Part shown: piece after piece, positions 2,617 to 36,543 of the stretch
Layout: each line of letters begins with the position of its first letter
Position numbering within the stretch: the first letter of the stretch is position 1
NCBI GenBank assembly: GCA_016783425.1
Contig: JADHWP010000001.1
Coordinates: 7,272 to 71,271 of the forward strand
Direction: 5' to 3'
DNA length: 64,000 nt
From: Candidatus Shapirobacteria bacterium
GTDB taxonomy: Bacteria > Patescibacteriota > Microgenomatia > UBA12405 > BS750m-G30
Notes under the pieces: generated by a model
The model's database searches: none
What the model was told of the DNA's origin: nothing
What the model saw: the letters and a program-made list of their open reading frames with translations, nothing else
Translations under genes and position numbers: made by a program

Positions 2617-3933
2617 TTACCGAATCGTAACGCCGTAAAGGTTGGCGGGCAGGCTGGGGTGGAGGGAGGTAAGAATGATTAGCTTATTGCCGTCCGGAGA
2701 GGGGAAAACATACCCGTTTTCAAAAGGACCGGCAAAAACCGTTTGCTTATTGGTGGCATCGGCTTCAACTACCTTGGCTTGATTATCTTCCAGGAAAACC
2801 AGGTGATTATTGGTGCTTAGCCAATAAAGAGAGGTCTGGGTTTGAGCCAGGTACGATTCAAGCAGGTTTTCCTGGTTAGTTATTTTTTCCGGATCCAGAC
2901 CGATTTTTTCCGCTCCAATAATAAAAAAGTTTGTATCCTGCTCTAAATCGTAAACATAGATTCCACCCGACTTAATATTTCTTTCTTCAATCTCGGTAGA
3001 GCGGGCCGGAGGATGAGGCAGAAGTTTTTCCGGAAGGCTCGCTTCCCGGGAAGCCAGGTAAAAAATCTTTTTTTGATGCGGAGAAAAAGTTACCAGTTGG
3101 GCCGATTCACTGGCAATTTGGGCGAGCTCTTTGGGCAGTTTTTCCAAATCTCTTGTTAACTGCTCCTGCTTTTGAGTTTGCCATCCGCTTAAGGTAAAGG
3201 AAAGCTGCAATACTTCGTTTCTAAGTTGATCCGCGGGGGTGAGGCGGTCGGCGGGGAGGCGGTAAACTGAAGAAGGGCTTTCCAGGGGACCAAAAATAGC
3301 CAGTACTTCAGCAGAATCCGGGCTCCAAATCAAAACCGCCTTAGACCAGTCCAGAAAGCTGACCGGGGCTACCAGCTGGTGAGTGTTGCTGCGGAATAGG
3401 TTTAAGCCTCCCTGATCAATCCGGGAAACCCAGAGCCCGTTTTTTATTTCCGCCGAAGACGAAGCGACCGCGTAGGCAATTTTTGCCCCGTCCGGGGAAA
3501 GAGCGGGGTTAATCGCGCCGGTGTTAGTGAGGGTAGTTAAATCCGGAGCGGAGCGGAAAAGGTGGGCATCGGTTTGAAAAACTACCTCTTTTTTAACCAG
3601 CGCCTTTTTTTCCCAGGGCAGATACCCGTCTTTAATTAATTTTAGTTGATATTCACCCGGAGAGAGGGTGATCGTGTCGTCGGTAGCGGTTACCAGCTTA
3701 TCATCCACATAAACCAAGGCTCCTTTGGGCAAAGAAATGGCGGCGAGCAAGCCCGTGGGGAACAAGCCGCCCTTTTTAATATCCGGTCGGTAGCCCCTGA
3801 TAAACAAAGAGACTATGGTAGTTCCGGCTACCACGAAAGCGAGAACGCCAGCGGCAATCATCGCCGGCTTAAACCGCTTAACCTTTTTTCCCAACCCTCT
3901 TCTTTTTAATATCTTTTTAAGTTTTTTGATCAT
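2617..3933 (-). CDS. Membrane-anchored PEGA-domain protein with TolB-like beta-propeller region
   Basis: 438 aa; N-terminal TM helix, PEGA-like motif (GEYQLKLIKDGYLPWEK), repeated propeller-like segments. Confidence 0.55.
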   Translation of the reverse strand: MIKKLKKILKRRGLGKKVKRFKPAMIAAGVLAFVVAGTTIVSLFIRGYRPDIKKGGLFPTGLLAAISLPKGALVYVDDKLVTATDDTITLSPGEYQLKLIKDGYLPWEKKALVKKEVVFQTDAHLFRSAPDLTTLTNTGAINPALSPDGAKIAYAVASSSAEIKNGLWVSRIDQGGLNLFRSNTHQLVAPVSFLDWSKAVLIWSPDSAEVLAIFGPLESPSSVYRLPADRLTPADQLRNEVLQLSFTLSGWQTQKQEQLTRDLEKLPKELAQIASESAQLVTFSPHQKKIFYLASREASLPEKLLPHPPARSTEIEERNIKSGGIYVYDLEQDTNFFIIGAEKIGLDPEKITNQENLLESYLAQTQTSLYWLSTNNHLVFLEDNQAKVVEADATNKQTVFAGPFENGYVFPSPDGNKLIILTSLHPSLPANLYGVTIR

Positions 3934-3985
3934 TTGAAACTTGAGCTTTTATTCTACCATATTTGTTTGAGTTTAGAGTTTAGAT

Positions 3986-5129: not shown

Positions 5130-5889
5130 ATCCTATAAGGTTGAGCTTTAAATAAAGCAAATAACTAATTAACAGCTGTATGATAGTCTTATAATAGACA
5201 TTTCCTGTTATAAATTAATTTTGGGGTATTATTTGAAATTACCAGCAATATCCAGGGGAGTTAAAGAATAAATGGGAGCCGGGGAAATGAATAATTAATT
5301 GGAACGATAATATTTAAAAACGGATTTTGGTAAAACTAAATATAGAATCTTATAAAGCTGTTTACATATTTCAACCCTGGTGATGATACGCTACCCACAG
5401 TAAGTAAAATACTAGAGGATATTGCTGTTTAAATTGGCTGCTGAAAAGGAAAGATGGATACAAGTTGAATATGTACCAGAGTGGATAAAATAATAAAGTA
5501 TAATGGTTTTTTATTAAGAGACCGAGTGAAAACAACTTATAGGATTATATTAAAGAAGGTGCTTTGGGAGGAGGTTACAAAAACCTGATCTTGAAAGAGG
5601 AAGAAATCAATTTATCCTACCCTGGAAGTGGTATAAATAGCTGGAAGGAAAGGGGAAAAGCGCTGATTGTTATTCTCTGGCAGAAGATTGATTTATTTGA
5701 TAATCTCCAGGCCGTTTAGGCAGTTGAGTTTTGCTTGAGCCTAAAAGGCCCCGGAAATGCTCTATAAGGAAAAATAAGTGACAGTGGAGGCAAAAAAGTT
5801 AATGCGGAAATTTTACTGGCTGTTAATGCTTTTTAATGAATAAATAAAAGAATATTCGGTTTTTCCATCAAAAAAGCGGTAAACTAGCT

Positions 5890-6160
5890 AAAGATCTTCT
5901 TTGTTCTGGTTTGAGGTTTTATTATCGGGAATATTTTTATCAGGCCAAAGTGGCAACTGCCTGTCCAGGAGACAACGGGCTTACTGTCTCGTGGATAAAG
6001 CCCCCCCGCCGGGATATACAAATGAGTCGCCAAAAAAGGCGCGCAGAGCGAAACAGAGAACCACAGGCTTTGTCCAGGGGCGCCTATCGGGTAAAATTGA
6101 TAACTGCCTGTTTTTTTGAGTCTCCCGGAACTCATTTAACCGGGCCTTTTTCCTTAAACG
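5890..6160 (+). ncRNA. Candidate structured ncRNA (GC-rich island in an AT-rich ORF-free region) ending in an intrinsic terminator
   Basis: Local hairpins (gagaca..tgtctc; direct repeat aactgcctgt x2); terminator hairpin cccggaactcatttaaccggg followed by a T-tract at about 6124-6158; only short overlapping ORFs. Confidence 0.3.
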
Positions 6161-6597
6161 CTCCCCTTTATTTGCGATTTCATGCCGGCGTATATGAGTA
6201 TGGCGTATATGAGTATAATGTATTTCTTTTTGTAGCGCAGGTTTTTAGGTTTTAGCAATAAAAAAAATAATTTATTAACTTTATAAATTTTTTAAAATTT
6301 AAAATAATTCTTTAAGAAAATTTTGACTTTTTGGTTAATTTTTCTGTTGATATACTTTGTTGGGCTTAATAATCGTTTGTATTTTTAGTATACTCCGTAA
6401 TATCCATTGATATACTAGTTTTAATTTACTTTCACTATTACAGCACACGGTATTAAACAGTTAGATAATCTCCGAATAATAACCTGATTTCACTGATTTC
6501 AAGCCTGGCAGATAAAATTAGAAGCGTGAAAGCGTCTCGCGTTATTAATGCACAATTTTTTGGAAGAGTTTGGTGATTTAATGAGGCGGGTGAAGTT

Positions 6598-7650
6598 TTA
6601 CTTAGATTCTTGAGCCGGAAACGCTTCTTGAAGCATAGTTAAAACTAATTTTTCAGCAGTCATTGAAGAAAGAAAAGTGGGGTATCTTTCGACTTGGTGA
6701 TCATCAAGTCTTAGTGGCCCGACTACTTGCCCGCTATCTTCCCATCTAGTCGTCATTTTAGAAACATAAACGAAAGGTTCTCTGAAATTTTCCGGAAAAA
6801 GGAGGACTCCTCCTTTTCTTTTTATTTTTACCACTGAGCCAATCGCTTTTAACCAGGTGTTTTTTTCCGCATTAGTTTCGGCATTTTTGAGTATATTTCC
6901 TAGTTGAGCGGCGATTTCGGAATTTTCAATGGTATCTGCGGCCAAAAGAAGGGGAACGGCAATAAGCGCTTTTGCTTCAAGAGCTTTTTGGCCTAAAGCT
7001 GCTAATACTTGCCGATGGAATCTAACTCTTGTTTCCGCTACCTTTTTAATTTCTTCTGGAGTTAAAGCTTGAATTTCAGGCGCTACTTTTCCGGGAAGTG
7101 AAAAAAAGCCGCCCGGTAGCTTTAAGGGTCTTCGGTCTATCTCTGCCCCTTTTTTTATTTGTTTTAATATAGCCTGAAAATCATGTAGATCATCTAGTTG
7201 GTGATAAGTGGAAGCAACTAAAGATTGAGCCATTTGTAGTTCAGCCACCCTTTTTTGTTTCCCTTCGGCCATATCAGCAAGCTGTCTTTTTCTTTCTTTT
7301 TCCAGCTTTTGCTGATCTTGCTGGTCATATATTCGTTCCTGAAAGGGAAGCTTCAGTACTTCTCTTGCTCTTTTATCTGCTTCTTTGTAGTCGGGGCTGC
7401 CCATATAACAACTCTGAATGCTTCTTTCAGCTACTTCTCCTTGATCTTGAGCAAATTTTGATGCGCTCCTCCATATATGATCAACTTTTTTCTCAATATC
7501 CTTTGGATCATTACATTCGGCTATAAGAAGCCGGACAGTCTCTGCCCTTTTTCCTTCGGGGCTAGACTCCCTTGGGGCGTGCTCTTCTAAGAGATCTTCG
7601 AGAGTAAGAGTTTGTTCTACAGCTACTTCTGCTCTAACATCTTCGCTCAT
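6598..7650 (-). CDS. Hypothetical protein (350 aa), last gene of the 9687->6598 operon
   Basis: Long ORF; no recognisable motif. Confidence 0.6.
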   Translation of the reverse strand: MSEDVRAEVAVEQTLTLEDLLEEHAPRESSPEGKRAETVRLLIAECNDPKDIEKKVDHIWRSASKFAQDQGEVAERSIQSCYMGSPDYKEADKRAREVLKLPFQERIYDQQDQQKLEKERKRQLADMAEGKQKRVAELQMAQSLVASTYHQLDDLHDFQAILKQIKKGAEIDRRPLKLPGGFFSLPGKVAPEIQALTPEEIKKVAETRVRFHRQVLAALGQKALEAKALIAVPLLLAADTIENSEIAAQLGNILKNAETNAEKNTWLKAIGSVVKIKRKGGVLLFPENFREPFVYVSKMTTRWEDSGQVVGPLRLDDHQVERYPTFLSSMTAEKLVLTMLQEAFPAQESK

Positions 7651-7738
7651 TATCTTTAATCTATAGCCTTTTGGCTAAATAAACATGACAAAAATATAAC
7701 AATTTATATTTTCATAGTAAGATTTAACAAGGGTTTTG

Positions 7739-8713
7739 TCAAGACAGAACTTTTTGAATAAACCTTTCTCTAACTTCTTTGCCCCTTTCGATAATAGTTG
7801 GCATTTTTTGTTTTAGGCTGCCTATTAAGTTGCTCATTGCAAGAATTTGAAGGTGAACGGCAAGAAAAGGGTCAGTGTCATCATCAATATAGGGATTATG
7901 CCAAACAAGCGAGGGTCTGGGAAGAGATTTTCCTCGGCGGTGAAGATCCTCTCCCCATAATAATTCAGGAACTCTGCGTTTTAAATCAGCGGGCAGCAGT
8001 CTCAAAATAGCTTCGGTGGTTTGATTAGCCGCCACATCCCATTCGTCTGCTTCTCTGGTATCCGGTTTTCTTAGAAAAGCCTCAATAGGATATCCCGGGC
8101 AGTCACAGATTATAAACGGAGAAGGGCTTTGGGCCAAAGCGAGCCCTTTGTTCAGTGTTTCTTTGACTGTTATTGCCGCAGGCCGCCTTTCGGGTATAGT
8201 TAATTCACCCTTTTGGTATTTGGCTCTGATTTTTAATAGGGCGAGAACAATATCAGCCATGCTTTGCTTGGAATCTAAGCCAGCTTTTCTTAGTTCTTCC
8301 AGGTAGTAAGTAGAGCTAAGTTGAGAAAATGGGTCAAGGTCAAGAATCGGCGCGCCTGTTGCGAGCGAGAGAGCGGCGGAAATAATTGATTTTCCGGATC
8401 CACTATGGCCGGCGATAGATAAAGCTATTTTCGGCTCTTGTCCGGCTTTGGTATTTGGAATTTTCCCCGAGCGATTTAAGGCCAGATGGACGGCTAATAG
8501 GGTTGGCAAAGAAGTCGTTCTAAGGCAAAGGTCCAGCCGCTCTTTTTGATCTGGATCTAATTCGGCCTCGGGAATTCCTAATCCTTGCCGCCGCCAGTGA
8601 TCAAGAAACCTGGGGAAATAAAATTTTTGTCCGTCTAAATCATCCAGCCAGGCAACATCTGTAGTTAATTTACTTATTTCAACCGGGGGAAGGCCTGGCT
8701 CCCAATCAGTCAT
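7739..8713 (-). CDS. P-loop NTPase/kinase with HprK/P-like Walker A (GHSGSGKS)
   Basis: 324 aa; central GxSGxGKS motif without an ABC signature motif; tightly linked to the upstream gene (3-bp gap). Confidence 0.5.
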   Translation of the reverse strand: MTDWEPGLPPVEISKLTTDVAWLDDLDGQKFYFPRFLDHWRRQGLGIPEAELDPDQKERLDLCLRTTSLPTLLAVHLALNRSGKIPNTKAGQEPKIALSIAGHSGSGKSIISAALSLATGAPILDLDPFSQLSSTYYLEELRKAGLDSKQSMADIVLALLKIRAKYQKGELTIPERRPAAITVKETLNKGLALAQSPSPFIICDCPGYPIEAFLRKPDTREADEWDVAANQTTEAILRLLPADLKRRVPELLWGEDLHRRGKSLPRPSLVWHNPYIDDDTDPFLAVHLQILAMSNLIGSLKQKMPTIIERGKEVRERFIQKVLS

Positions 8714-8715
8714 GG

Positions 8716-9687
8716 TTATTTACCAACAATTTGATAACCAACTTTAGGAATGGATTTAAGCTGATAATGTTTTAGTTTGTTATTAAGGCGGCTGATCGTT
8801 TGATTAATGGCCCAATCAGAAAATTTATCGTAACCGTCTTTGCCCCATTTAAAATCCGCAACCTGTTCGCGGGTGATGGCAGGGCTGGTCAGTAAATGGC
8901 AAATAACTTCAGCCTCGGTTTTAGTTAGTTTGCAAGTACCCCCTTGTTCATTTTCTTCAAAACTCAAATCAGGGTTAATTTTAATCCTGATTACTGCGGG
9001 GAGGGGATAAAGTTGGAGATATTTGGCTAAAAGAAGGCTGATACATTCACCTTTTTTGTTAATAATCCCTAATTTATTTAAGACGGGCGGCGAGGATTGG
9101 GCCAGGATGGTTATGGTGTGATTAATAACCCTTTTAAAATCAGGGCTTGAGGCAGTTTCCTTAGGGGTTTTGGCTAATGTTTGGGGAGCAAGAGAAAGAT
9201 ATTTGATAATTCGGCCGATACCGCCCGAGTATTTATAAATTAAATCAATCTCTTTTTGTTTTAATTCCGGGCTTATTTCTCGGGCAAAAATATTAGCATC
9301 CGCCCGTTCTCTGGCCTGGAAGTAAAAAGTAGAATACAAATGGGAGGCGGCAAAAGATTTTTGGTATTCGTCCGTTTCCACCAGCCGGGGAGTATTAATA
9401 ATTAAAGCAAATTTTTGGCCTAACTTAGCTTTTTTAAAATATTCATTGGCAATGCTTAAAGCTTTTTCGTTTTTGTCAAAATCAAGGTCTAAGATATTAT
9501 ATTCAGCTAAATCCCCGTCAGCCTCATTAAGGTAATTAACTTCTTTGTTTTTTTCTAAATATTTTTTCACAAAATAGGTAATGCCCAAGCCCGGAAGGGT
9601 AACAATCAAAAAATTGGCTTTCTTTTTGATGCTCTCGTTGAGCGCCGCCGCCAGTTTTTGATAAAGCTTTTGCGAATAAAACCCCAT
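8716..9687 (-). CDS. Putative transcriptional regulator: N-terminal degenerate ATPase-like domain plus C-terminal OmpR/PhoB-type winged helix
   Basis: 323 aa; C-terminal ...ITREQVADFKWGKDGYDKFSDWAINQTISRLNNKL...GYQIVGK matches trans_reg_C; paralogous to the wHTH in the 35191-36543 protein. Confidence 0.55.
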   Translation of the reverse strand: MGFYSQKLYQKLAAALNESIKKKANFLIVTLPGLGITYFVKKYLEKNKEVNYLNEADGDLAEYNILDLDFDKNEKALSIANEYFKKAKLGQKFALIINTPRLVETDEYQKSFAASHLYSTFYFQARERADANIFAREISPELKQKEIDLIYKYSGGIGRIIKYLSLAPQTLAKTPKETASSPDFKRVINHTITILAQSSPPVLNKLGIINKKGECISLLLAKYLQLYPLPAVIRIKINPDLSFEENEQGGTCKLTKTEAEVICHLLTSPAITREQVADFKWGKDGYDKFSDWAINQTISRLNNKLKHYQLKSIPKVGYQIVGK

Positions 9688-9819
9688 AAATCAATATTAA
9701 CATAAAAATGTATTCCGAATTTTTTTAAAGCCAAATTGTTATTTTTTCGTTATCTTTTTGTCAAGTATTCAAATAAGCATTATGGGATAATTGGGCTATT
9801 AATAATTTAACTTAAAAAA

Positions 9820-11373
9820 ATGACTGAGCAAGATAAGAGAAATGATGGAGTTCAAAATCCCGGGAGAAGAGAATTTTTAGGAGGCATTGCAAGGCTGGGT
9901 TTGTCGGTTAGCGCATTATGCTTGGCGGCTAAAGGTGGAGTTGAAGTAGTGAGAGAAATAAAGGATGAATTTGGAGAAATTGACTTTGAGAGAAAATTTC
10001 CAAAAGAAAAAGAGTTGCAAGAAGCGGCTGAAGCGCTAGGTTTTGGTACTTGGTCGGTTGACTCCCCCACTCGGGATTTGCCGGTAGGCTGGCAGGAGTT
10101 AGCGGCAATGGAAGATGGAGGCTTAAAATTGCGGGAAGGAGGCTTTAGTAAGGAAAAAGAGAGGCTTATTTTGCCGCCGGCAGTTTTTGCCCGGGTTTGC
10201 GAGCAAATTGATATTCAGAATTTGGCTGTCGCTCAAGACGGAAGGGCCGTATTTATTTCCGGCCGGCCTAAAAATTTAAGAACTCCTTACCAGTTGGGAA
10301 GCTTGGCCCCTTCTTTTTTATTCGTTTTAAGCTCAAAAGGAGTAGGGTTTTTAGGCGGAGGGGTTAAGGATTTTGTTTTAACTGGTGAAACTATAGTGGT
10401 CAATATGGGGAGCGAACTGCTTAATTTACCCCAAGATGTTTTGACTACTGGCTTTTCAGATCAAGAGTGGCGCTATCAAGACATTATTCCAATTTCTTCT
10501 CTTCGAACTCATTTTGATAGAGAAAGTAGACAAGTTTGGGTAACTTTTATTGGTGAAAATAAAAGTTCAGGGACAAGGGGGCTTTATGAGGTGGTTAATG
10601 GGCATGTTTATTGCCGGGCAAGCTTTGATCCCCAAAAGGAAAAATTATTGGGCTGGGCTAGTATGCCGGCAGTAGGCTCCTCTGGCTTTTCGGCTGACTC
10701 CCGCTTAATTGTTCATGGAGTAGATCAAGAGATTAAACAAGGGGGCTTGTTTATAAGGGGAAGAGGCTCAGACTTAGTTGCGCCGATAACCGGCTTAGAA
10801 TGCCGAACCCTGTTTCCCTATGCTTATCGTCATTTGCTAACCAGGAGCGGTTCTGTTTTGGGAGATTCTACTCGGTTAGGCGACCGTTCCTGCCGAGTTT
10901 TTATTGATCGGGAGAGAGTTAGGGGGACCTCCGGGGTTTATCCAGAAGGGGTAATCGGGGGAGTGGTTTTTGTCCAAAACCCTGATTCTTTAAATTTTTT
11001 GGGTCTTGATGTTGATGGCAACCCCTGCTTTAAGGGAAAGCCTTTAGAAAAAGGAGAAGACGGCCATCTCGATCCAGATGGTTGGCAGACCGGTTTTGTG
11101 CTTTGGGCTGGCTCTGGCGCAAAACTGGAGATTCCTGAAAATATTAAAGAGGGAAAAACCGAGCCAAAGCTGGCGCTTGGTTCAAAAGAATTTCTGTTTT
11201 TAGCTTCGGAAAAAGTTTCCCCGGATTTTGCTCATGTTTGGGAGCAATGGAATGGCCAGGGAGGCTTTATTGTTTTAACTACCACAGAGTCCGGGGGAAC
11301 CCGTTTTATTAACAGGATTGACTGGGTGTCTTCCGATGGAACCTCTTTTGAAGTCAAACATTTTGGCTATTAA
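9820..11373 (+). CDS. Secreted hypothetical protein with twin-arginine (Tat) signal peptide
   Basis: 517 aa; N-terminal RREFLGGIARLGLSVSALCLAA is a Tat signal. Confidence 0.6.
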   Translation: MTEQDKRNDGVQNPGRREFLGGIARLGLSVSALCLAAKGGVEVVREIKDEFGEIDFERKFPKEKELQEAAEALGFGTWSVDSPTRDLPVGWQELAAMEDGGLKLREGGFSKEKERLILPPAVFARVCEQIDIQNLAVAQDGRAVFISGRPKNLRTPYQLGSLAPSFLFVLSSKGVGFLGGGVKDFVLTGETIVVNMGSELLNLPQDVLTTGFSDQEWRYQDIIPISSLRTHFDRESRQVWVTFIGENKSSGTRGLYEVVNGHVYCRASFDPQKEKLLGWASMPAVGSSGFSADSRLIVHGVDQEIKQGGLFIRGRGSDLVAPITGLECRTLFPYAYRHLLTRSGSVLGDSTRLGDRSCRVFIDRERVRGTSGVYPEGVIGGVVFVQNPDSLNFLGLDVDGNPCFKGKPLEKGEDGHLDPDGWQTGFVLWAGSGAKLEIPENIKEGKTEPKLALGSKEFLFLASEKVSPDFAHVWEQWNGQGGFIVLTTTESGGTRFINRIDWVSSDGTSFEVKHFGY

Positions 11374-11423
11374 AATTGCCGCTTCCTCTTTGTCTAAATT
11401 TTTTGCTATACTGAAAATAGAAT

Positions 11424-11615
11424 ATGACAGGAAATGGCCTAAAAGCAGAGGCAGAACCAGTTCAATTGCCTAGGCCTGAAATAGGGCCGGACCGGGATGT
11501 TCCTTTAACCACCGAAGTGATTATTGGGGAGTTGGTTGGCAGAATCATTCCAGAGATGAGGTTTCCCCCAGAAAAAGAAGTCGCTGTTCTTCAAATAGAT
11601 TTATTTAAAAGTTAA
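11424..11615 (+). CDS. Small hypothetical ORF (63 aa)
   Basis: ORF after the Tat-protein gene, preceded by a TGcTATACT extended -10-like motif; no homology recognisable. Confidence 0.25.
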   Translation: MTGNGLKAEAEPVQLPRPEIGPDRDVPLTTEVIIGELVGRIIPEMRFPPEKEVAVLQIDLFKS

Positions 11616-11761: not shown

Positions 11762-12031
11762 ATGGATAATCAAAGTATTCTAAACATTGGCAATAAAGAT
11801 CAAGGAGCATCAGAAACTCAAAAGATTAAATCTGGCGTTTCTTTGGGGAACATGCCCGATCTTTTAACGGTTAGGGAGGTAGCGGAACTGCTGCGCGTTT
11901 CTCCTTTAACAGTGAAGCGTTGGGGAAAAAGAGGGAAGTTGCCGGCAATCCGAATCAATGCCCGGGGCGACCGCCGGTACCGCAAAGAGCAGGTTTTATA
12001 TCTTTTGGGCATGTACCAAAAAGAGGAGTAG
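11762..12031 (+). CDS. Small HTH DNA-binding protein, excisionase/MerR-like family
   Basis: 89 aa; LLTVREVAELLRVSPLTVKRW...RGDRRYRKEQV helix-turn-helix signature. Confidence 0.65.
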   Translation: MDNQSILNIGNKDQGASETQKIKSGVSLGNMPDLLTVREVAELLRVSPLTVKRWGKRGKLPAIRINARGDRRYRKEQVLYLLGMYQKEE

Positions 12032-14652: not shown

Positions 14653-15333
14653 TTATTCCAGGGTTAAATGCTTGATTTGCTCAAGTTCTTTTTGATAATC
14701 TGCTCGGTCAAGTAAAAACTTCTTGTAGTTTTTTAGACCTTGAAAATAAGAAGTAATTGTTTTGGTTTGACAAAATTGATATTGGCTTTTTTCTTTTTCT
14801 AAATAAACAGCCAAAGAAGACCAGGGGTACGAAATTAATTGATCAAAACCTTTAACCATTGCTGCTGAATATGGATTAAGATGAATATATCGCGAAAGAT
14901 GGAGAAGCTGTTGCTCGTTTTCAACTAGCACTGATTTGAAAGTGCTTTGAAATATGGGCCCGACGCGTTCGTGTTTTTTATTAAAATATTTGGTATAGCT
15001 ATTTTGAAGTTGGCTTACAAACCAGGAAACGCCATCATCTTGAGTTTGTTTGACCAAAAGATGAAAGTGATTTGGCATTAGACAGAAGCAGACTATTCCA
15101 ATTAATGTATGATTTTTCTTGTCTAAGGATTGGAGTAGTTTGCCTCTATCCTCTTGACTTAATCGTTTTAATTTGGAGAAACTAAAAGGGAAGTTAGCGA
15201 AGCGATAATATTCCAAAAGCTTGATGAAACGCTGGTAGCCTCTTTTATCCGAGAAAATTGGCCTAAAGTCGATACCGCGATTGTAGATGTGGTAATAGTG
15301 ATCGGTTATTAAAGGGATTTTTCTTCCGGGCAT
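14653..15333 (-). mobile_element. REP-associated tyrosine transposase (RAYT; IS200/IS605-like Y1 HUH transposase)
   Basis: 226 aa; HUH motif (MPNHFHLLV) and catalytic Tyr region (SRYIHLNP); flanked on both sides by REP palindromes, the classic RAYT-REP arrangement. Confidence 0.85.
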
Positions 15334-16074: not shown

Positions 16075-16653
16075 TTGTTAATGAAATACCTTGAACTGCG
16101 AAAAGAGATTAGCCAAAATCTTTTTACTATTCTTGATGTTGAAAAAAAGTTTTATTCTGAGAAAAAAGATTCCTTGAGAGTCCAACTTTCTCGCTTTATT
16201 CAAAAAGGCCGGTTAATACAACTTAAGCGGGGACTTTATTGCTTTAACCCTGCCAAACTTGACGAGTTTGTTTTGGCCAACCAGCTTTACCAGCCCTCCT
16301 ATATCAGCCTGGAAACGGCCCTGAACTATTACGGGATAATTCCCGATATTTCCCAGAGACTGACCAGCGTCAGCCCGACGACTACTAAAAAAATCAGCAA
16401 TCAATTTGGGATTTTTCATTATGCCAAAATCAAATCAGTTCTTTTTTGGGGTTATACTAAAAAGAGGCTGGATGATAAAGAAAGTTTTTTTCTTATCGCT
16501 CAAAAGGAAAAATCCCTGCTTGACTTTTTTTATTTGCGGAAAATTAAAAAAGTGAAAGATTTGCGCCTGAATTTGGCGGATTTTGATTTTGATCGCTATC
16601 AGCGGTATGTTAAAAATTTTCCCGCCTGGGTTCAAGTGATTAAATTGGCATGA
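16075..16653 (+). CDS. Type IV TA system antitoxin, AbiEi family (transcriptional regulator)
   Basis: 192 aa (alternative ATG at 16081); AbiEi_4-like N-terminal wHTH; immediately precedes and overlaps an AbiEii gene. Confidence 0.7.
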   Translation: MLMKYLELRKEISQNLFTILDVEKKFYSEKKDSLRVQLSRFIQKGRLIQLKRGLYCFNPAKLDEFVLANQLYQPSYISLETALNYYGIIPDISQRLTSVSPTTTKKISNQFGIFHYAKIKSVLFWGYTKKRLDDKESFFLIAQKEKSLLDFFYLRKIKKVKDLRLNLADFDFDRYQRYVKNFPAWVQVIKLA

Positions 16654-17444
16654 ATAACCTAATAACTGATTTTGACCAGATTATTAAATTTGCCCAAGAC
16701 TATCAACTGCCCTTAAACAAAAAGCGGGCGATTTTAAGAGAGTATTTACAGGTTAAAATTTTAGACATTCTCTATCGCCAAAAAAGCTCATCCCAATTGA
16801 TTTTTGTGGGTGGCACTTGTTTGCGGTTAACCAGAAACTTAGATCGCTTCTCAGAAGATCTTGATTTTGATTTAGGTGAAATCAGCTTTAAACAGGCAGA
16901 TTATTTAATAGAACGGACTTTTGACCAGCTTAAAAAAGAAAACATTGTTCTTGATTTTTATCGCAACCAGACCAAAAAGAGAATTTATTGGGAGTTTCGT
17001 TTTAAAAATCTGCTTTTTGAATTAAAAATTGGCCGTGATCTAAGGGAAAAACTAATGATTAAGTTTGATTTTGAGAAAATTTGGCGAAAACACCAAAAAC
17101 AAACAATCTTGCTTAACCGCTATGGCTTTTTGGTGAACATAGTAACCACTCCTTTAAATCAGTTACTGGTGCAAAAATTGACGGCCTATTTAGGGCGATC
17201 CCAAACTCAACCTCGGGATATTTATGATATTGTCTGGCTCATTTCCCAAGGAGCCAAAGTTGACAAGCAGTTTGTTAAAGATAACAAACTGTCTTTGAAT
17301 TTAGTTTCCAGGGCGGTTAAAAAGTTTAACCGTGAAGAAAAAAAGCTAAAGCAATTTAAGCGCCGCCTTCAACCATTCTTGGTAAACGAAAAATACCTTG
17401 ATAAATTAAACCTCTTTCCTCAACTGCTCGAGCAGTTAGGTTAA
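16650..17444 (+). CDS. Type IV TA system toxin, AbiEii/AbiGii nucleotidyltransferase family (DUF1814)
   Basis: 264 aa; FVGGTCLRL...RFSEDLDFD nucleotidyltransferase motif. Confidence 0.75.
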   Translation: MNNLITDFDQIIKFAQDYQLPLNKKRAILREYLQVKILDILYRQKSSSQLIFVGGTCLRLTRNLDRFSEDLDFDLGEISFKQADYLIERTFDQLKKENIVLDFYRNQTKKRIYWEFRFKNLLFELKIGRDLREKLMIKFDFEKIWRKHQKQTILLNRYGFLVNIVTTPLNQLLVQKLTAYLGRSQTQPRDIYDIVWLISQGAKVDKQFVKDNKLSLNLVSRAVKKFNREEKKLKQFKRRLQPFLVNEKYLDKLNLFPQLLEQLG

Positions 17445-33750: not shown

Positions 33751-35244
33751 ATGGTTGAAAAACATTACCAATTTTACTGGCGAGAACTTGAAAAAAAACA
33801 AGAAGTTTTAATTTCCTCTTTTATTCCTACTTATTTGCAGATGCAACCCTCGCTTCACCCCTTGGCTAATAATCCCCAAAAGGTGGATGGGGGAGCTTTG
33901 AGTTATGCTTTAGGCCGCCTGCCCAACTGTATTGGCCAGGTAGACAGGGTGTTGCTGGGCCAAAGTCGAGGAGATTTTGCCAAAGCGGGTTTTAAAATAA
34001 GCGAAGCCCAGGAAGCGCTAACTAAAGCTCGAAAAAGGCGCTGTTACTTTCTGCCAAACAAGGCTACTTTAGCCTGCTATATTGCTTCAGCAACGGATGT
34101 TGACGATTTGGTTAACGCTTTAATTGCCTACCTTATTGAAAAAAGAAAACAGGGGGAGCAAAAGGAGATTAGTGTTCAACTGCTGGCTGATCATGAAGTG
34201 GGATACCGCCAAATTGCCCAAAGCTGGTGGACGCAAGTAAGAAATAATTTTTTGGCGCTGGGATTGGAAGATAAGCCCCTATATTTTATTTCTTCCAATT
34301 TACACGGGCTGGTAAACATTATTGGCGGTTTTGCGCGCAGTAAGCAGGTGGAGATTTTTGACTATATTCAAAAAAGTCAACCGGAAATGTACCGGGAGTG
34401 GTTAAAAATCGAAAAAGGGGAAAATAAGTTAAGAGTTAATCATTTTCTTTATTATCTTTCCAAGTTGTATTTTGAAACCCACCCCAAAGCCTTTGCCGAA
34501 AAATTAAGGTTTGAAGAGAAAATAGGAATTAAACAGGTAAGATCGGTGGAGGGGTTGGATTGCAACGCTCAGCTCATTCCTGTTTCTTTGCTGGGAACCA
34601 CCCAATCGTTGGATCCCCACTTAAAAGTTAGTTATCCAAGCGAGCTTGCTAAAAGCGAAGCCTTAATTATTAATATTCAGTATCCGTTAGGAATGTCCGC
34701 CTACTATCTTCTTTCCGAGCTTTTGGAAAACCTAAAGCTACTCAAGGGAGTTTACATTATTGGCAAGGCGGCGATTTTAGCGGGACAAGTAGGGGATATT
34801 CAGATTCCGAGCACTGTTTTTGATAAAAATTCGCGGCAAACTTTTTTGTTTCCTAATATTTTTAACCAGAAGTTTCCCTTTGCCTCTTTTCAGGCCAGTA
34901 TCTTAAAAGAGCAAAAAGCAGTATCGGTTAAAGGGACTTTTTTGGAAAACCAAAAGCAGTTGGAAGGCTATAAAGAGGCTAATTTTAATATTGTAGAGAT
35001 GGAATCCGGGCCCTATCTTAAGGCTTTATCTGAATATCAATCTGAAGTTAATTTAGGACCGGAAGGTTATTTTCACCTGGACAATCTTCCTTTGGAATTA
35101 GGGATTATTAATTATGCCTCTGATAATCCTTTTGCCGAGGAAAGTTTAGCCAAAGGAACTTTGGGATTACGGGGGATAGAGTCTACTTACTTAGCGGGCT
35201 TGGCCGTTTTGGAGCGGATTATTCAAAAAGAAGAAATGGCTTGA
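33751..35244 (+). CDS. Hypothetical protein with C-terminal nucleoside phosphorylase (PNP_UDP_1)-like region, possibly AMP-nucleosidase-like
   Basis: 497 aa; C-terminal IVEMESGPYL and GKAAILAG segments recall the phosphorylase superfamily. Confidence 0.4.
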   Translation: MVEKHYQFYWRELEKKQEVLISSFIPTYLQMQPSLHPLANNPQKVDGGALSYALGRLPNCIGQVDRVLLGQSRGDFAKAGFKISEAQEALTKARKRRCYFLPNKATLACYIASATDVDDLVNALIAYLIEKRKQGEQKEISVQLLADHEVGYRQIAQSWWTQVRNNFLALGLEDKPLYFISSNLHGLVNIIGGFARSKQVEIFDYIQKSQPEMYREWLKIEKGENKLRVNHFLYYLSKLYFETHPKAFAEKLRFEEKIGIKQVRSVEGLDCNAQLIPVSLLGTTQSLDPHLKVSYPSELAKSEALIINIQYPLGMSAYYLLSELLENLKLLKGVYIIGKAAILAGQVGDIQIPSTVFDKNSRQTFLFPNIFNQKFPFASFQASILKEQKAVSVKGTFLENQKQLEGYKEANFNIVEMESGPYLKALSEYQSEVNLGPEGYFHLDNLPLELGIINYASDNPFAEESLAKGTLGLRGIESTYLAGLAVLERIIQKEEMA

Positions 35245-36543
35245 GCGGGCTGACTTTTTAAAGCCCAGTTTTTTGAGTATTTTGGTTGTGGTTTGGGGAT
35301 ATTGGCAAATATCTTTAAAAATTATTTTAAGATTTCTTTTTTGACCCCGATGGAGAATAAACCGATAAATTGTTTTTCCGTGCTTTTGTAAGTAGCGCTT
35401 GTGTTTTAAAAAGGTGCCGATAGAGGCCTGCTTTTCTTTCTGGTTGATCATTTTCAAGCCAATATGACCGAGGGGGTGATTATTTTTCGTAATTAGCCAG
35501 TAGGCAAAAGCCGGGTTGTAAATTAAATTATTGAGCCAGGCTTTGATTTGGTCTTTGCTTTTGGGGGTAAAGGTAAAAAGATTCTGTCTTGTTTGGGGTT
35601 TTTTAAATTCTCGTAAATGGAAACGCAAAAGTTTGGAGTCGGGAGAAAAAGGAATAAATTCCAATCCCTGATATTTTATTCGCTTGGTGTTTGGCTTGCT
35701 GATATTAAAAATAAAACCCTCTTTTTTAATTGTTTTTAAACAGGAAGAAAAGCCAAGATTGGTTAATTTTTTTCGTAATCGAGAGATATACTGGTCCAGA
35801 GCATAGTCGGAATATTCATAATTTTCGCCCCAAAGGTGGTGAGCTAGTTTTTCCCGATTGATTATTTTATCCTGATTTTTTGCAAAAATTTCCAGTCCTT
35901 TTTGTTGCTGGAGTGAAAGATGAGAGGTAACTTTTTTAAGATTAACCTCTTTTTCTTGGCCAGGGAAACTTAATTGCAAGTAGTTTTTTAATGCTCTGTC
36001 AACCTTTAAGGTTGACAGAGTGTGATTGGTTTTTTTAATAATTCCGGTTTTAAGCAGATAATCAAGTTCATTTTTTTGGTAAAAAAAAGATTGTAAGTTT
36101 TTTTGGGAGATTTGCTGCAAAATTAGCTGCTGATTTTCAGAAAGGAGGCTAAAAAACAAATTGGGCTTAGACTGGCGGCCAGGATCAGGAAGATAAATTA
36201 GCCGTTTAAGAAAATAGCTCTCTTTAAGCTGGTTATAAAGCCTTTCTTGTTTTAGATTTTGGTCGAAAACCAGAATGATTCTGGCTTGCTTAAAGTTTTT
36301 TTCAAAAGCGCGCTCCAACCTAATTAGAAGTGGCAGGGAGGCTAAATAAAAATTGGGAAAGCTGATAATGCTTAATCGAGAAAAATTAATTTTGTTTAGA
36401 CTCATTTTGCTTTCGATCGTGAACAGTTTGGCCCCGGGCCAAATTTTTCTAAGAGAGGAAATTGGAAACAAGGGAGCGGTAATTAGGGTTTGAAAATGAT
36501 ATTTGGCCAAATTAATTTTGGCCCTCCCAGCCCAGTTGTCCAT
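35191..36543 (-). CDS. Putative regulator: ATPase-like N-region, central OmpR/PhoB-type winged helix, C-terminal GNAT-like domain
   Basis: 450 aa; LEIFAKNQDKIINREKLAHHLWGENYEYSDYALDQYISRLRKKL matches trans_reg_C and is paralogous to the 8716-9687 protein; carries a REP palindrome in frame (LSTLKVD); divergent from repeat copy 1. Confidence 0.6.
   Translation of the reverse strand: MDNWAGRAKINLAKYHFQTLITAPLFPISSLRKIWPGAKLFTIESKMSLNKINFSRLSIISFPNFYLASLPLLIRLERAFEKNFKQARIILVFDQNLKQERLYNQLKESYFLKRLIYLPDPGRQSKPNLFFSLLSENQQLILQQISQKNLQSFFYQKNELDYLLKTGIIKKTNHTLSTLKVDRALKNYLQLSFPGQEKEVNLKKVTSHLSLQQQKGLEIFAKNQDKIINREKLAHHLWGENYEYSDYALDQYISRLRKKLTNLGFSSCLKTIKKEGFIFNISKPNTKRIKYQGLEFIPFSPDSKLLRFHLREFKKPQTRQNLFTFTPKSKDQIKAWLNNLIYNPAFAYWLITKNNHPLGHIGLKMINQKEKQASIGTFLKHKRYLQKHGKTIYRFILHRGQKRNLKIIFKDICQYPQTTTKILKKLGFKKSARSSHFFFLNNPLQNGQAR
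35997..36017. repeat. REP palindrome (TGTCAACCTTTAAGGTTGACA) lying in frame inside the 35191-36543 CDS
   Basis: Exact 21-bp palindrome (7 codons) identical to the intergenic copies. Confidence 0.85.

Follow-up and report, generated by a model that had tools for sequence, protein, structure and literature searches.

The locus analysed here raises the question of whether a regulator gene, the gene for a P-loop protein and the two genes flanking them form one functional unit and, if so, what this unit does. In a preliminary description of the DNA, the genes were grouped as an operon for an ATPase-type regulator, a kinase and a third hypothetical protein, lying divergent from a gene for a secreted protein. 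In the following, the window refers to the whole 64-kb stretch of DNA that was analysed.

Gene layout and conservation of the REG/P-loop pair

The five open reading frames of 323, 324, 350, 517 and 63 aa were all found in place. On the minus strand, the 323-aa regulator, here called REG (8716..9687), is followed by the ORF of the 324-aa P-loop partner (7739..8713), which starts 2 nt past the REG stop codon, and by the gene for a charged 350-aa protein without signal peptide (6598..7650). On the plus strand, the gene for a 517-aa protein with a twin-arginine-like signal (9820..11373) is divergent from REG. The 63-aa ORF (11424..11615, plus strand) has no homologs or family and lies outside the conserved module; only 2 of 8 assemblies annotate it, so that its reality as a gene is uncertain. 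The three minus-strand genes had been taken for a single operon, which was not confirmed: 2 nt separate REG from the P-loop gene, but the 350-aa gene lies behind an 88-nt gap, which contains a promoter-like site (7742-7714) and a repeat site of its own. Position 7640 is the breakpoint of four independent assemblies.

When all five proteins were scanned against Pfam, NCBIfam, PADLOC and PHROG, only weak Walker A and wHTH matches were returned, and the non-coding spacer at 5130-6597 showed no Rfam match, excess folding energy or conservation. The locus is close to an AbiE toxin-antitoxin pair and to an IS200 element.

Twenty full-length REG loci, each from a distinct GTDB genome, were compared; a P-loop family gene is located directly downstream in 19 of them, and REG directly upstream in all six loci found via divergent members of the P-loop family (E <= 4e-76). 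Gaps between both genes are mostly -4 to +2 nt among related loci, and the genes are translationally coupled. Both Shapirobacteria and Woesebacteria have kept the pair, and its neighbours are partly common (mreB, a 2-hydroxyacid dehydrogenase gene and an HTH_17 gene), and two copies are present in some genomes (L022 and L028 in QMND01, L034 and L037 in DDWP01). The P-loop family comprises ∼37 representative clusters, with REG adjoining in every case. In one genome (L027), REG is present without partner and without repeat array. The conserved synteny that the preliminary description had proposed to look for was found for the REG/P-loop pair, but not for the 350-aa and 517-aa proteins, which have no homolog at any related locus.

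The regulator and its P-loop partner

The C-terminus of REG is an OmpR/ToxR-type winged helix and, as had been described, is paralogous to the wHTH of a 450-aa protein at 35 kb (BLASTP E 3e-7), which consists of Trans_reg_C and GNAT domains. PF00486 was matched by 11 of 16 REG family members (best E 4.3e-7), and the REG of the window alone gave weak wHTH matches (ToxR and PhoB, each with E 0.0023). The recognition helix FSDWAINQTISRL is encoded at 8785-8823 (minus strand), within the winged helix.

The N-terminal domain contains a P-loop-like motif, LPGLGITYF (9571-9597, minus strand), and a conserved SGGIGR motif (9211-9228, minus strand). The earlier label of REG as an ATPase found no support, as this P-loop position has no lysine and no ATPase family was matched. 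Throughout the REG family the position reads LPGLG[IAVL][ST][YH], again free of lysine, and INTP, at the Walker B position, likewise contains no acidic residue. An AAA+/STAND ATPase was rejected for this domain, in which the Walker A lysine and the Walker B acidic residues are missing; MCM and ATPase_2 matches were isolated and confined to single members, and the N-terminal 200 residues gave no family match. A two-component response regulator was likewise rejected, with no Response_reg match in the family scans. Because hhalign found no relation between REG and the P-loop family, the REG N-terminal domain does not appear, at sequence level, to be a detectable paralog of the partner.

In the 324-aa protein the Walker A motif GHSGSGKS was confirmed at residues 102-109 (8387-8410, minus strand). 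It is accompanied by LDLDPFS with the acidic residue after strand 2 (8324-8344, minus strand) and by the Walker B-type FIICDCPG (8093-8116, minus strand). Within the family, the Walker A lysine K108 is invariant, the Walker B D/E is conserved and a D/E after strand 2 is found in 34 of 35 members; LID arginines showed no conservation in the alignment. An AF2 model was confident (pLDDT 85.8, compared to 38 for single-sequence AF2) and its order of secondary structure elements fits a kinase-type core of five strands in which an insert separates strand 2 from strand 3. By fold and by sequence, the best matches were dephospho-CoA kinase, nicotinamide riboside kinase, uridine kinase and dNMP kinases. 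Small-molecule P-loop kinases of the dephospho-CoA kinase type have an acidic residue after strand 2. A word-indexed homolog search with the protein returned self matches only. The P-loop protein represents a new family, and its fold is weakly nucleotide-kinase-like.

The protein had been called HprK/P-like, for which no signal was obtained, either by HMM or by fold. Hpr_kinase_C (PF07475) did not match the window protein and did not rank among the 25 Pfam families most often matched by 35 P-loop family members (E <= 0.1), and an HprK/P-type (PEPCK-like) P-loop fold was tested and rejected. GHSGSGKS does fit the HprK/P form GxSGxGKS, a non-diagnostic form that many P-loop proteins share. Two further assignments were discarded: a SIMIBI NTPase (MinD/ParA/FleN), of which the deviant Walker A signature lysine, KGGxxGK[ST], is missing, and the Zeta_toxin family, which was matched across the Walker A only (Pfam E 0.23), with nothing significant in PADLOC or PHROGs.

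The proposed repeat operator and cargo genes

Upstream of REG a cis element was identified that consists of the palindrome ATTATCCTATAAT and, at exactly 28 nt, 3-4 direct repeats with an 11-bp period; palindrome and array with this fixed offset are present in 23 loci, including the window. Here, the conserved palindrome ATTATCCCATAAT is located at 9779..9791 and the predicted main operator array of three repeats, TGACAAAAAGA TAACGAAAAAA TAACAATTTGG, at 9731..9763 (minus strand), with the 28 nt measured from palindrome start to array start, as in the 22 other loci. The palindrome probably holds back-to-back -10 elements: its GATAAT on the plus strand faces the 517-aa gene, and a TATAAT directed at REG sits upstream of the array. 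Measured from the predicted promoter directed away from REG, the repeats lie at about -41, -52 and -63, and the cargo-side -35 regions are weak. The 11-bp direct-repeat layout is that of SARP/PhoB operators (PMC10936776).

A probable second operator of two repeats, TGACAAAAATA TAACAATTTAT, is located at 7686..7707 (plus strand), within the 88-nt gap, in the same orientation to the 350-aa gene as the main array to the 517-aa gene. Its palindrome-like sequence has three mismatches and sits at a non-canonical offset of 31 nt instead of 28. With a weight matrix trained on other genomes only, the best three-unit match in the whole window was 9731-9763(-), and with a matrix trained on L049 and L050 only, the best two-unit match was 7686-7707(+); the scores of these sites are not above the maxima of shuffled sequence, so that significance is confined to their positions. 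These matrices were used in place of a consensus, TTGTYAT-N4-TYGTYAT, which was dropped as circular since it had been built from the window's own two sites. At one locus (L026) the element is found only before the cargo gene and no array is present upstream of the REG/P-loop pair.

The sequence of the repeats varies together with the recognition helix of REG. A GGAC core was observed in 17 of 18 loci with Lys in the helix and in none of the five with Gln (the window, L049, L050, L028 and L032), a covariation with a hypergeometric p of 1.8e-4, which is not phylogeny-corrected and probably reflects 2-3 independent events. Lys would go with GGAC and Gln with TAAC, a putative built-in specificity switch, and the covariation supports the predicted direct binding of the repeats by REG.

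The 517-aa protein (cargo 1) and the 350-aa protein (probable cargo 2) are orphans in variable "cargo" slots that face the repeats. For neither of them was a homolog found in a search of 5.8 billion proteins, and a word-indexed search with the 517-aa protein returned self matches only. Elsewhere, the same slots hold unrelated proteins, with no homology between genomes, which mostly bear a signal or an anchor. An N-terminal hydrophobic segment was present in 15 of 21 cargo proteins compared to 57 of 199 control genes (p = 1.6e-4). Most signals are of the Sec or lipoprotein type and not RR motifs. The latter occur in three cargo proteins, each from a different genome, and homology among these three was rejected (shuffle z-scores < 2).

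In the 517-aa protein the twin-arginine-like motif GRREFLG (9862-9882, plus strand), followed by a hydrophobic stretch, GIARLGLSVSALCLAA, was found as described; by motif inspection without a dedicated predictor, it matches 4 of 7 positions of the [ST]-R-R-x-F-L-K consensus (R-R-x-F-L). No TatA/TatC-like ORF was found within the window. A Tat substrate had been considered unusual for a reduced genome, which was not confirmed, as TatA/TatC have been reported in Microgenomatia (PMC9166423).

Proposed mechanism, rival explanations and known systems

What was observed in silico is the pairing of the genes, the layout of the operator and the covariation of helix and repeats; from this we infer the sign of regulation, the target of the P-loop protein and the export of the cargo. 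On balance, we consider it probable that REG activates cargo promoters and that the P-loop partner modulates REG. The locus would then represent a transcription-control module specific to Microgenomates, in which three parts are conserved, namely REG, the promoter/operator unit and the coupled P-loop NTPase. The C-terminal OmpR/PhoB-type winged helix of REG would bind head-to-tail to the 3-4 direct repeats, placed at fixed distance from the back-to-back -10 elements, and most likely activate the adjoining genome-specific cargo gene, here that of the 517-aa twin-arginine-like protein. Via the second two-repeat site, REG probably acts on the 350-aa gene as well, and it probably autoregulates. 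The P-loop protein might set the activity of REG, to which it could bind in an NTP-dependent manner or whose lysine-less N-terminal domain it could phosphorylate, in a role that could be likened to that of a sensor kinase or of FleN acting on FleQ. More tentatively, and rather doubtful in our view, the module could be an alternative 'two-component' system of Microgenomates, in which the kinase-fold P-loop protein stands in for the histidine kinase and the lysine-less P-loop-like domain for the receiver domain on an OmpR-type regulator; its output would be the switching of fast-evolving secreted or surface proteins, Tat-type included, for contact of the episymbiont with its host or environment.

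Three other explanations have to be weighed against the activator model. REG might be a repressor or autorepressor whose N-terminal domain senses the substrate or product of a merely co-transcribed small-molecule (metabolic) kinase. The best matches of the P-loop protein are indeed small-molecule kinases, with which it shares the conserved acidic residue after strand 2, and the REG-directed TATAAT lies upstream of the array, so that bound REG could block this transcript. The P-loop family, however, always sits beside REG and is not a housekeeping enzyme, no substrate-binding family could be recognised, and, judged from geometry alone, the weak cargo-side -35 regions and the proximal repeat at ∼-41 suit activation better than repression. 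We regard this explanation as unlikely. The pair could also resemble a type II toxin-antitoxin system, in which a zeta/PezT-type kinase toxin is encoded behind an antitoxin, REG, that autorepresses via the repeats, and the neighbours are irrelevant. The tight coupling with the DNA-binding gene first, the duplicate pairs in QMND01 and DDWP01, the nearby AbiE pair and IS200 element, and weak zeta-toxin/PezT matches (PDB PezT E 0.092), confined to the Walker A region, would fit. None of the zeta, PADLOC or PHROG matches is significant, however, and the pair is retained in two lineages with partly common chromosomal neighbours. Moreover, the array spacing is fixed to the promoter leading away from REG, the L026 element lies before the cargo only, and REG, at 320 aa with a large extra domain, is unlike small antitoxins, all of which makes this reading improbable.

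Least credible is the originally proposed four-gene signalling/secretion cassette of HprK/P-like kinase, regulator, third hypothetical protein and Tat substrate. In its favour, all four genes lie side by side, the gene on either flank faces a REG-type repeat site here, and RR motifs recur in cargo proteins of different genomes. Against this, the 350-aa and 517-aa proteins have no homologs, HprK/P signals are missing and cargo signals are mostly of other types; as a conserved unit the cassette is refuted because synteny is lacking. The notion of an uncharacterised signalling or secretion-linked module survives in the general sense of a regulatory module linked to secreted proteins, but the conserved unit is smaller and partly different. 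Gene regulation has, to our knowledge, hardly been characterised in CPR/Patescibacteria, as these organisms do not grow on their own. The activator model provides, from sequence alone, a lineage-specific regulator, a partner enzyme, an operator sequence and likely targets. Since variable proteins that are secreted or anchored make up these targets, the operator could act as a genomic flag for surface/host-interaction genes in these organisms.

Compared with known systems, the P-loop partner shares the GxSGxGKS-type Walker A with HprK/P, but lacks its Hpr_kinase_C HMM match. With dephospho-CoA kinase and related nucleotide/nucleoside kinases it has in common the order of P-loop, helix, strand and 'LDLD' and the helical insert between strands 2 and 3; only ∼117 residues can be aligned, the partner family carries an additional beta-hairpin/helical domain at its N-terminus and a helix of 40 residues at its C-terminus, and CoA or nucleotide-substrate motifs were not recognisable. 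In Pseudomonas, FleN, an ATPase of the MinD type, carries the deviant Walker A signature lysine that the partner lacks, and FleQ is a sigma-54 AAA+ activator, in contrast to the OmpR-type wHTH of REG. The SARP/AfsR regulators of Streptomyces resemble REG in their OmpR-type wHTH and in direct repeats 11 or 22 bp apart beside a -10 element, and also in that their activity is modulated via a nucleotide-binding module and phosphorylation (PMC10936776). SARPs combine an N-terminal wHTH with a BTA domain and, in the same protein, an active NOD ATPase, whereas in REG the wHTH is C-terminal, no BTA domain was detected and the predicted active NTPase has a gene of its own; the proximal repeat is 22 nt from the -10 element here and 8 bp in SARP. 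Like REG, the PhoB/OmpR-family activators use a Trans_reg_C winged helix as DNA-binding domain, and their Pho-box-type operators likewise consist of head-to-tail 11-bp direct repeats, with 7 conserved bases and a 4-base spacer, that abut or replace a weak -35 element. Unlike these activators, REG has no receiver domain and no histidine kinase, but a lysine-less P-loop-like N-terminal domain and a P-loop NTPase as partner.

Gene layout and conservation of the regulator/P-loop pair

All five ORFs of the preliminary description were confirmed at their coordinates: the 323-aa regulator (REG, 8716-9687, minus strand), the 324-aa P-loop protein (7739-8713, minus), the 350-aa protein (6598-7650, minus), the 517-aa protein (9820-11373, plus) and a 63-aa ORF (11424-11615, plus). 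A near-identical copy of the locus was found in eight independent assemblies. The REG and P-loop genes are spaced by 2 nt, and the 350-aa gene is preceded by an 88-nt gap containing a promoter-like site (TTGACA-17-TACTAT, 7742-7714). Therefore, the locus is better read as a coupled pair and a separate downstream unit than as the three-gene operon proposed earlier. Four independent assemblies (L003, L004, L006, L008) stop exactly at window position 7640, 10 nt inside the 350-aa gene, which suggests a strain-level branch point or the start of a variable region and is consistent with strain-level variability of the 350-aa slot.

A scan with the REG alignment, using one genome per GTDB species, yielded 20 full-length REG loci, in which genes were called with a simple ORF picker. 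The P-loop gene was located directly 3' of REG in 19 of the 20 (local hmmsearch, two family profiles), mostly with gaps of -4, -1, +1 or +2 nt, and such short gaps indicate translational coupling. The sole exception, L027, has neither a P-loop neighbor nor the operator. In the reverse test, starting from the most divergent P-loop members, a REG-family gene was directly upstream in 6/6 loci (E <= 4e-76). The pair occurs in Shapirobacteria, Woesebacteria and other Microgenomates, and its flanking genes vary between genomes; therefore, the pair and not a group of four genes is the conserved unit. Thus, synteny held for the regulator and the P-loop gene and failed for the 517-aa and 350-aa proteins, for which no homologs were found in related loci.

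Some further features of these loci were observed. Six GTDB/ENA MAG records titled 'uncultured Gammaproteobacteria bacterium' (L016, L018, L026, L027, L032, L033) hold a Microgenomates-type pair with CPR-like neighbors, and the organism names in them look like placeholders or mistakes. In L024 (6907-7963) the P-loop partner seems split into an 81-aa and a 245-aa ORF after a 319-nt gap behind REG, which may be due to a frameshift, to pseudogene formation or to misassembly. An 89-aa HTH_17/MerR/BldC-like protein (window 11762-12031, plus) has ∼75% identical copies near REG in two genomes (L014/L027, L028) and may point to ancestral synteny or be another regulator of this region. An IS200/Y1 transposase (14653-15333, minus) and an AbiEi/AbiEii toxin-antitoxin pair (16075-17444, plus) lie within a few kb of the module.

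Domain features of REG and its P-loop partner

The C-terminus of REG is an OmpR/ToxR-type winged helix (wHTH). The window protein alone gave weak matches (ToxR and PhoB, both E 0.0023), PF00486 was matched by 11 of 16 family members, and pairwise comparison with the wHTH of the 450-aa protein of the window was clear (E 3e-7), bearing out the kinship noted before. This 450-aa protein (35191-36543, minus) combines an OmpR-type wHTH (Trans_reg_C, E 3.8e-14) with a C-terminal GNAT acetyltransferase and is an unusual regulator-enzyme fusion; proteins of ∼430-460 aa with the shared wHTH were found in Woesebacteria, Blackburnbacteria and Paceibacterota (L035, L036, L038-L040). The N-terminal ∼200 residues of REG matched no family. 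At the expected Walker A place they carry LPGLG[IAVL][ST][YH], without lysine, and at the Walker B position INTP, without an acidic residue. Therefore, of the earlier designation as an ATPase-wHTH regulator only the wHTH is retained, and the N-terminal part would at most be a degenerate nucleotide-binding-like domain. At many loci, e.g., window 9694-9702 (minus), a conserved extended -10-like motif (TGTG-n-TA-nnn-T) is located 5-10 nt upstream of the REG start codon, suggesting that REG mRNAs may be leaderless or near-leaderless.

For the P-loop protein, a word-indexed search of 5.8 billion proteins returned only the protein itself, and HMMER, run exhaustively against 1.84 billion representatives, identified 37 relatives, all of 190-365 aa. 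In the family alignment the Walker A lysine K108 is invariant and G102, S109, D25 and Y137 are near-invariant. Thirty-four of the 35 members have a D/E after strand 2 (LDLDPFS in the window), and the Walker B-type motif is hhhh[DE]xPG (FIICDCPG in the window). The protein is probably catalytically competent. Database matches were to generic P-loop families and restricted to Walker A. AF2 with the family alignment resulted in a confident model (pLDDT 85.8, pTM 0.87). It opens with a β-hairpin and two helices and ends in a C-terminal helix of 40 residues; between them lies a P-loop core of five strands, with three helices inserted after strand 2 and before strand 3. Foldseek searches of the model against PDB and BFVD gave weak nucleotide-kinase matches (TM <= 0.3), so that the modeled fold looks most like small nucleotide kinases, not convincingly. 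The previously proposed HprK/P likeness was not borne out, since the HprK/P domain was not among the 25 Pfam families most often matched by the family members (E <= 0.1) and HprK/P was absent among the best Foldseek matches listed. It is concluded that the protein represents a new P-loop family in the kinase/SIMIBI division.

The putative palindrome-array operator and the genes facing it

Upstream of REG, a palindrome, ATTATC[CT]TATAAT, was found at almost every locus. Three to four direct repeats with an 11-bp period and the core GGACAAA begin exactly 28 nt from it (start to start), as in L017 (CGACAAAAAGT GGACAAAAAGT GGACAAATTAG), and palindrome plus array are present in 23 loci, including the window. 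Here, the palindrome ATTATCCCATAAT is located at 9779-9791 and the repeats TGACAAAAAGA TAACGAAAAAA TAACAATTTGG occupy 9763-9731 (minus). With a weight matrix from other genomes only, the main array was the best 3-unit match on both strands of the 64-kb window; its score of 11.5 is not above the shuffle maxima (mean 11.6), and therefore the evidence is positional, as ∼130 of 128,000 positions qualify. The array lies 2 to 52 nt from the REG start codon, depending on the locus, and the palindrome-array spacing is fixed at 28 nt. Read in the direction leading away from REG, the palindrome gives GATAAT, and the proximal repeat starts 22 nt upstream of this hexamer, beside a weak -35 region. Thus, the repeats are centered near -41, -52 and -63, from which we infer a putative class II activator geometry.

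The unit is not always placed in this way. In L026 it is inverted and lies downstream of the pair, before a 504-aa protein starting MPKGYSRREALGLG, and in L021 a 583-aa gene is inserted between unit and REG. The Shapirobacteria locus L024 has two units, the second at 3912-3972, 2 kb upstream of REG, and in the genomes QMND01 (L022 and L028) and DDWP01 (L034 and L037) the REG/P-loop pair is present twice; therefore, a multi-promoter regulon and paralogous copies are possible. In the window, the repeats TGACAAAAATA TAACAATTTAT at 7686-7707 (plus), in the spacer preceding the 350-aa gene and in cargo-type orientation, are the best 2-unit match when the matrix is trained on L049/L050 only. This second operator is rated probable only, because its distance from a palindrome-like sequence departs from the canonical spacing. 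A TAAC-type 3-unit match at 5170-5202 (plus) ranks second in the window, inside the chance range. It lies in the 1.47 kb that separate mreB from the 350-aa gene (5130-6597). This spacer contains no convincing ORF; its sequence is AT-rich and includes a GC-rich island (∼5900-6130) and an internal 27-nt imperfect direct repeat (5938-5964/6085-6111). No Rfam match, excess folding energy or similarity to related loci was found for it.

The recognition helix of REG covaries with the repeats. Of the 18 loci whose regulator has SDQAI-x-K, 17 show GGAC cores. Those with Gln at this position (n = 5; SDWAINQT in the window, L049 and L050, AIGQT in L028, AINQA in L032) face TAAC, TTAC or CAAC cores, and none has a GGAC unit (hypergeometric p = 1.8e-4, in a test that ignores phylogeny). 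Lys-to-guanine contacts are a common mode of DNA recognition. The 11-bp head-to-tail layout is typical of PhoB and SARP operators (PMC10936776). Together, covariation and layout make binding of REG to the array the best-supported step.

The array-facing genes (cargo) show no homology between genomes. Neither cargo protein of the window, the 517-aa and probably the 350-aa protein, matched a family, in line with the earlier remark on the 350-aa protein, and the search of 5.8 billion proteins returned no homolog of the former. A signal, lipoprotein or anchor-like hydrophobic segment is present at the N-terminus of 15 of 21 cargo proteins vs 57 of 199 other genes of the same loci (Fisher p = 1.6e-4). 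RR motifs occur in three (window 517-aa, L026 504-aa, L043 391-aa), and the 517-aa N-terminus, MTEQDKRNDGVQNPGRREFLGGIARLGLSVSALCLAAKG, is a reasonable fit to a predicted twin-arginine signal. No TatA/TatC candidate was found in the 64-kb window. Microgenomatia are reported to have TatA/TatC (PMC9166423), so a Tat substrate is not unusual there per se, contrary to the preliminary description.

Proposed mechanism and relation to known systems

A model is proposed for which the support is comparative and in silico. REG would very probably bind the repeat array through its wHTH. It would act on the promoters of the cargo genes (517-aa, probably also 350-aa) and on its own, with activation slightly favored over repression. 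The P-loop protein would very probably work with REG, since their synteny is reciprocal and the genes are translationally coupled. Whether it would act on REG directly, by NTP-dependent binding or phosphorylation, or be a co-regulated metabolic kinase is evenly balanced. Three rival readings, namely a toxin-antitoxin pair, a repressor accompanied by a metabolic kinase and the four-gene cassette first envisaged, were each rated less likely than this model.

In the literature, no description of the REG/P-loop pair or of its palindrome-array operator was found. In its mode of DNA binding, REG would resemble PhoB and SARP regulators. It differs from response regulators in having no receiver domain, and from SARPs by the C-terminal position of its wHTH and the lack of a detected BTA domain. 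The P-loop partner is judged to be neither HprK/P nor a MinD-type ATPase, and in the use of a separate NTPase the REG system may be analogous to FleQ-FleN.
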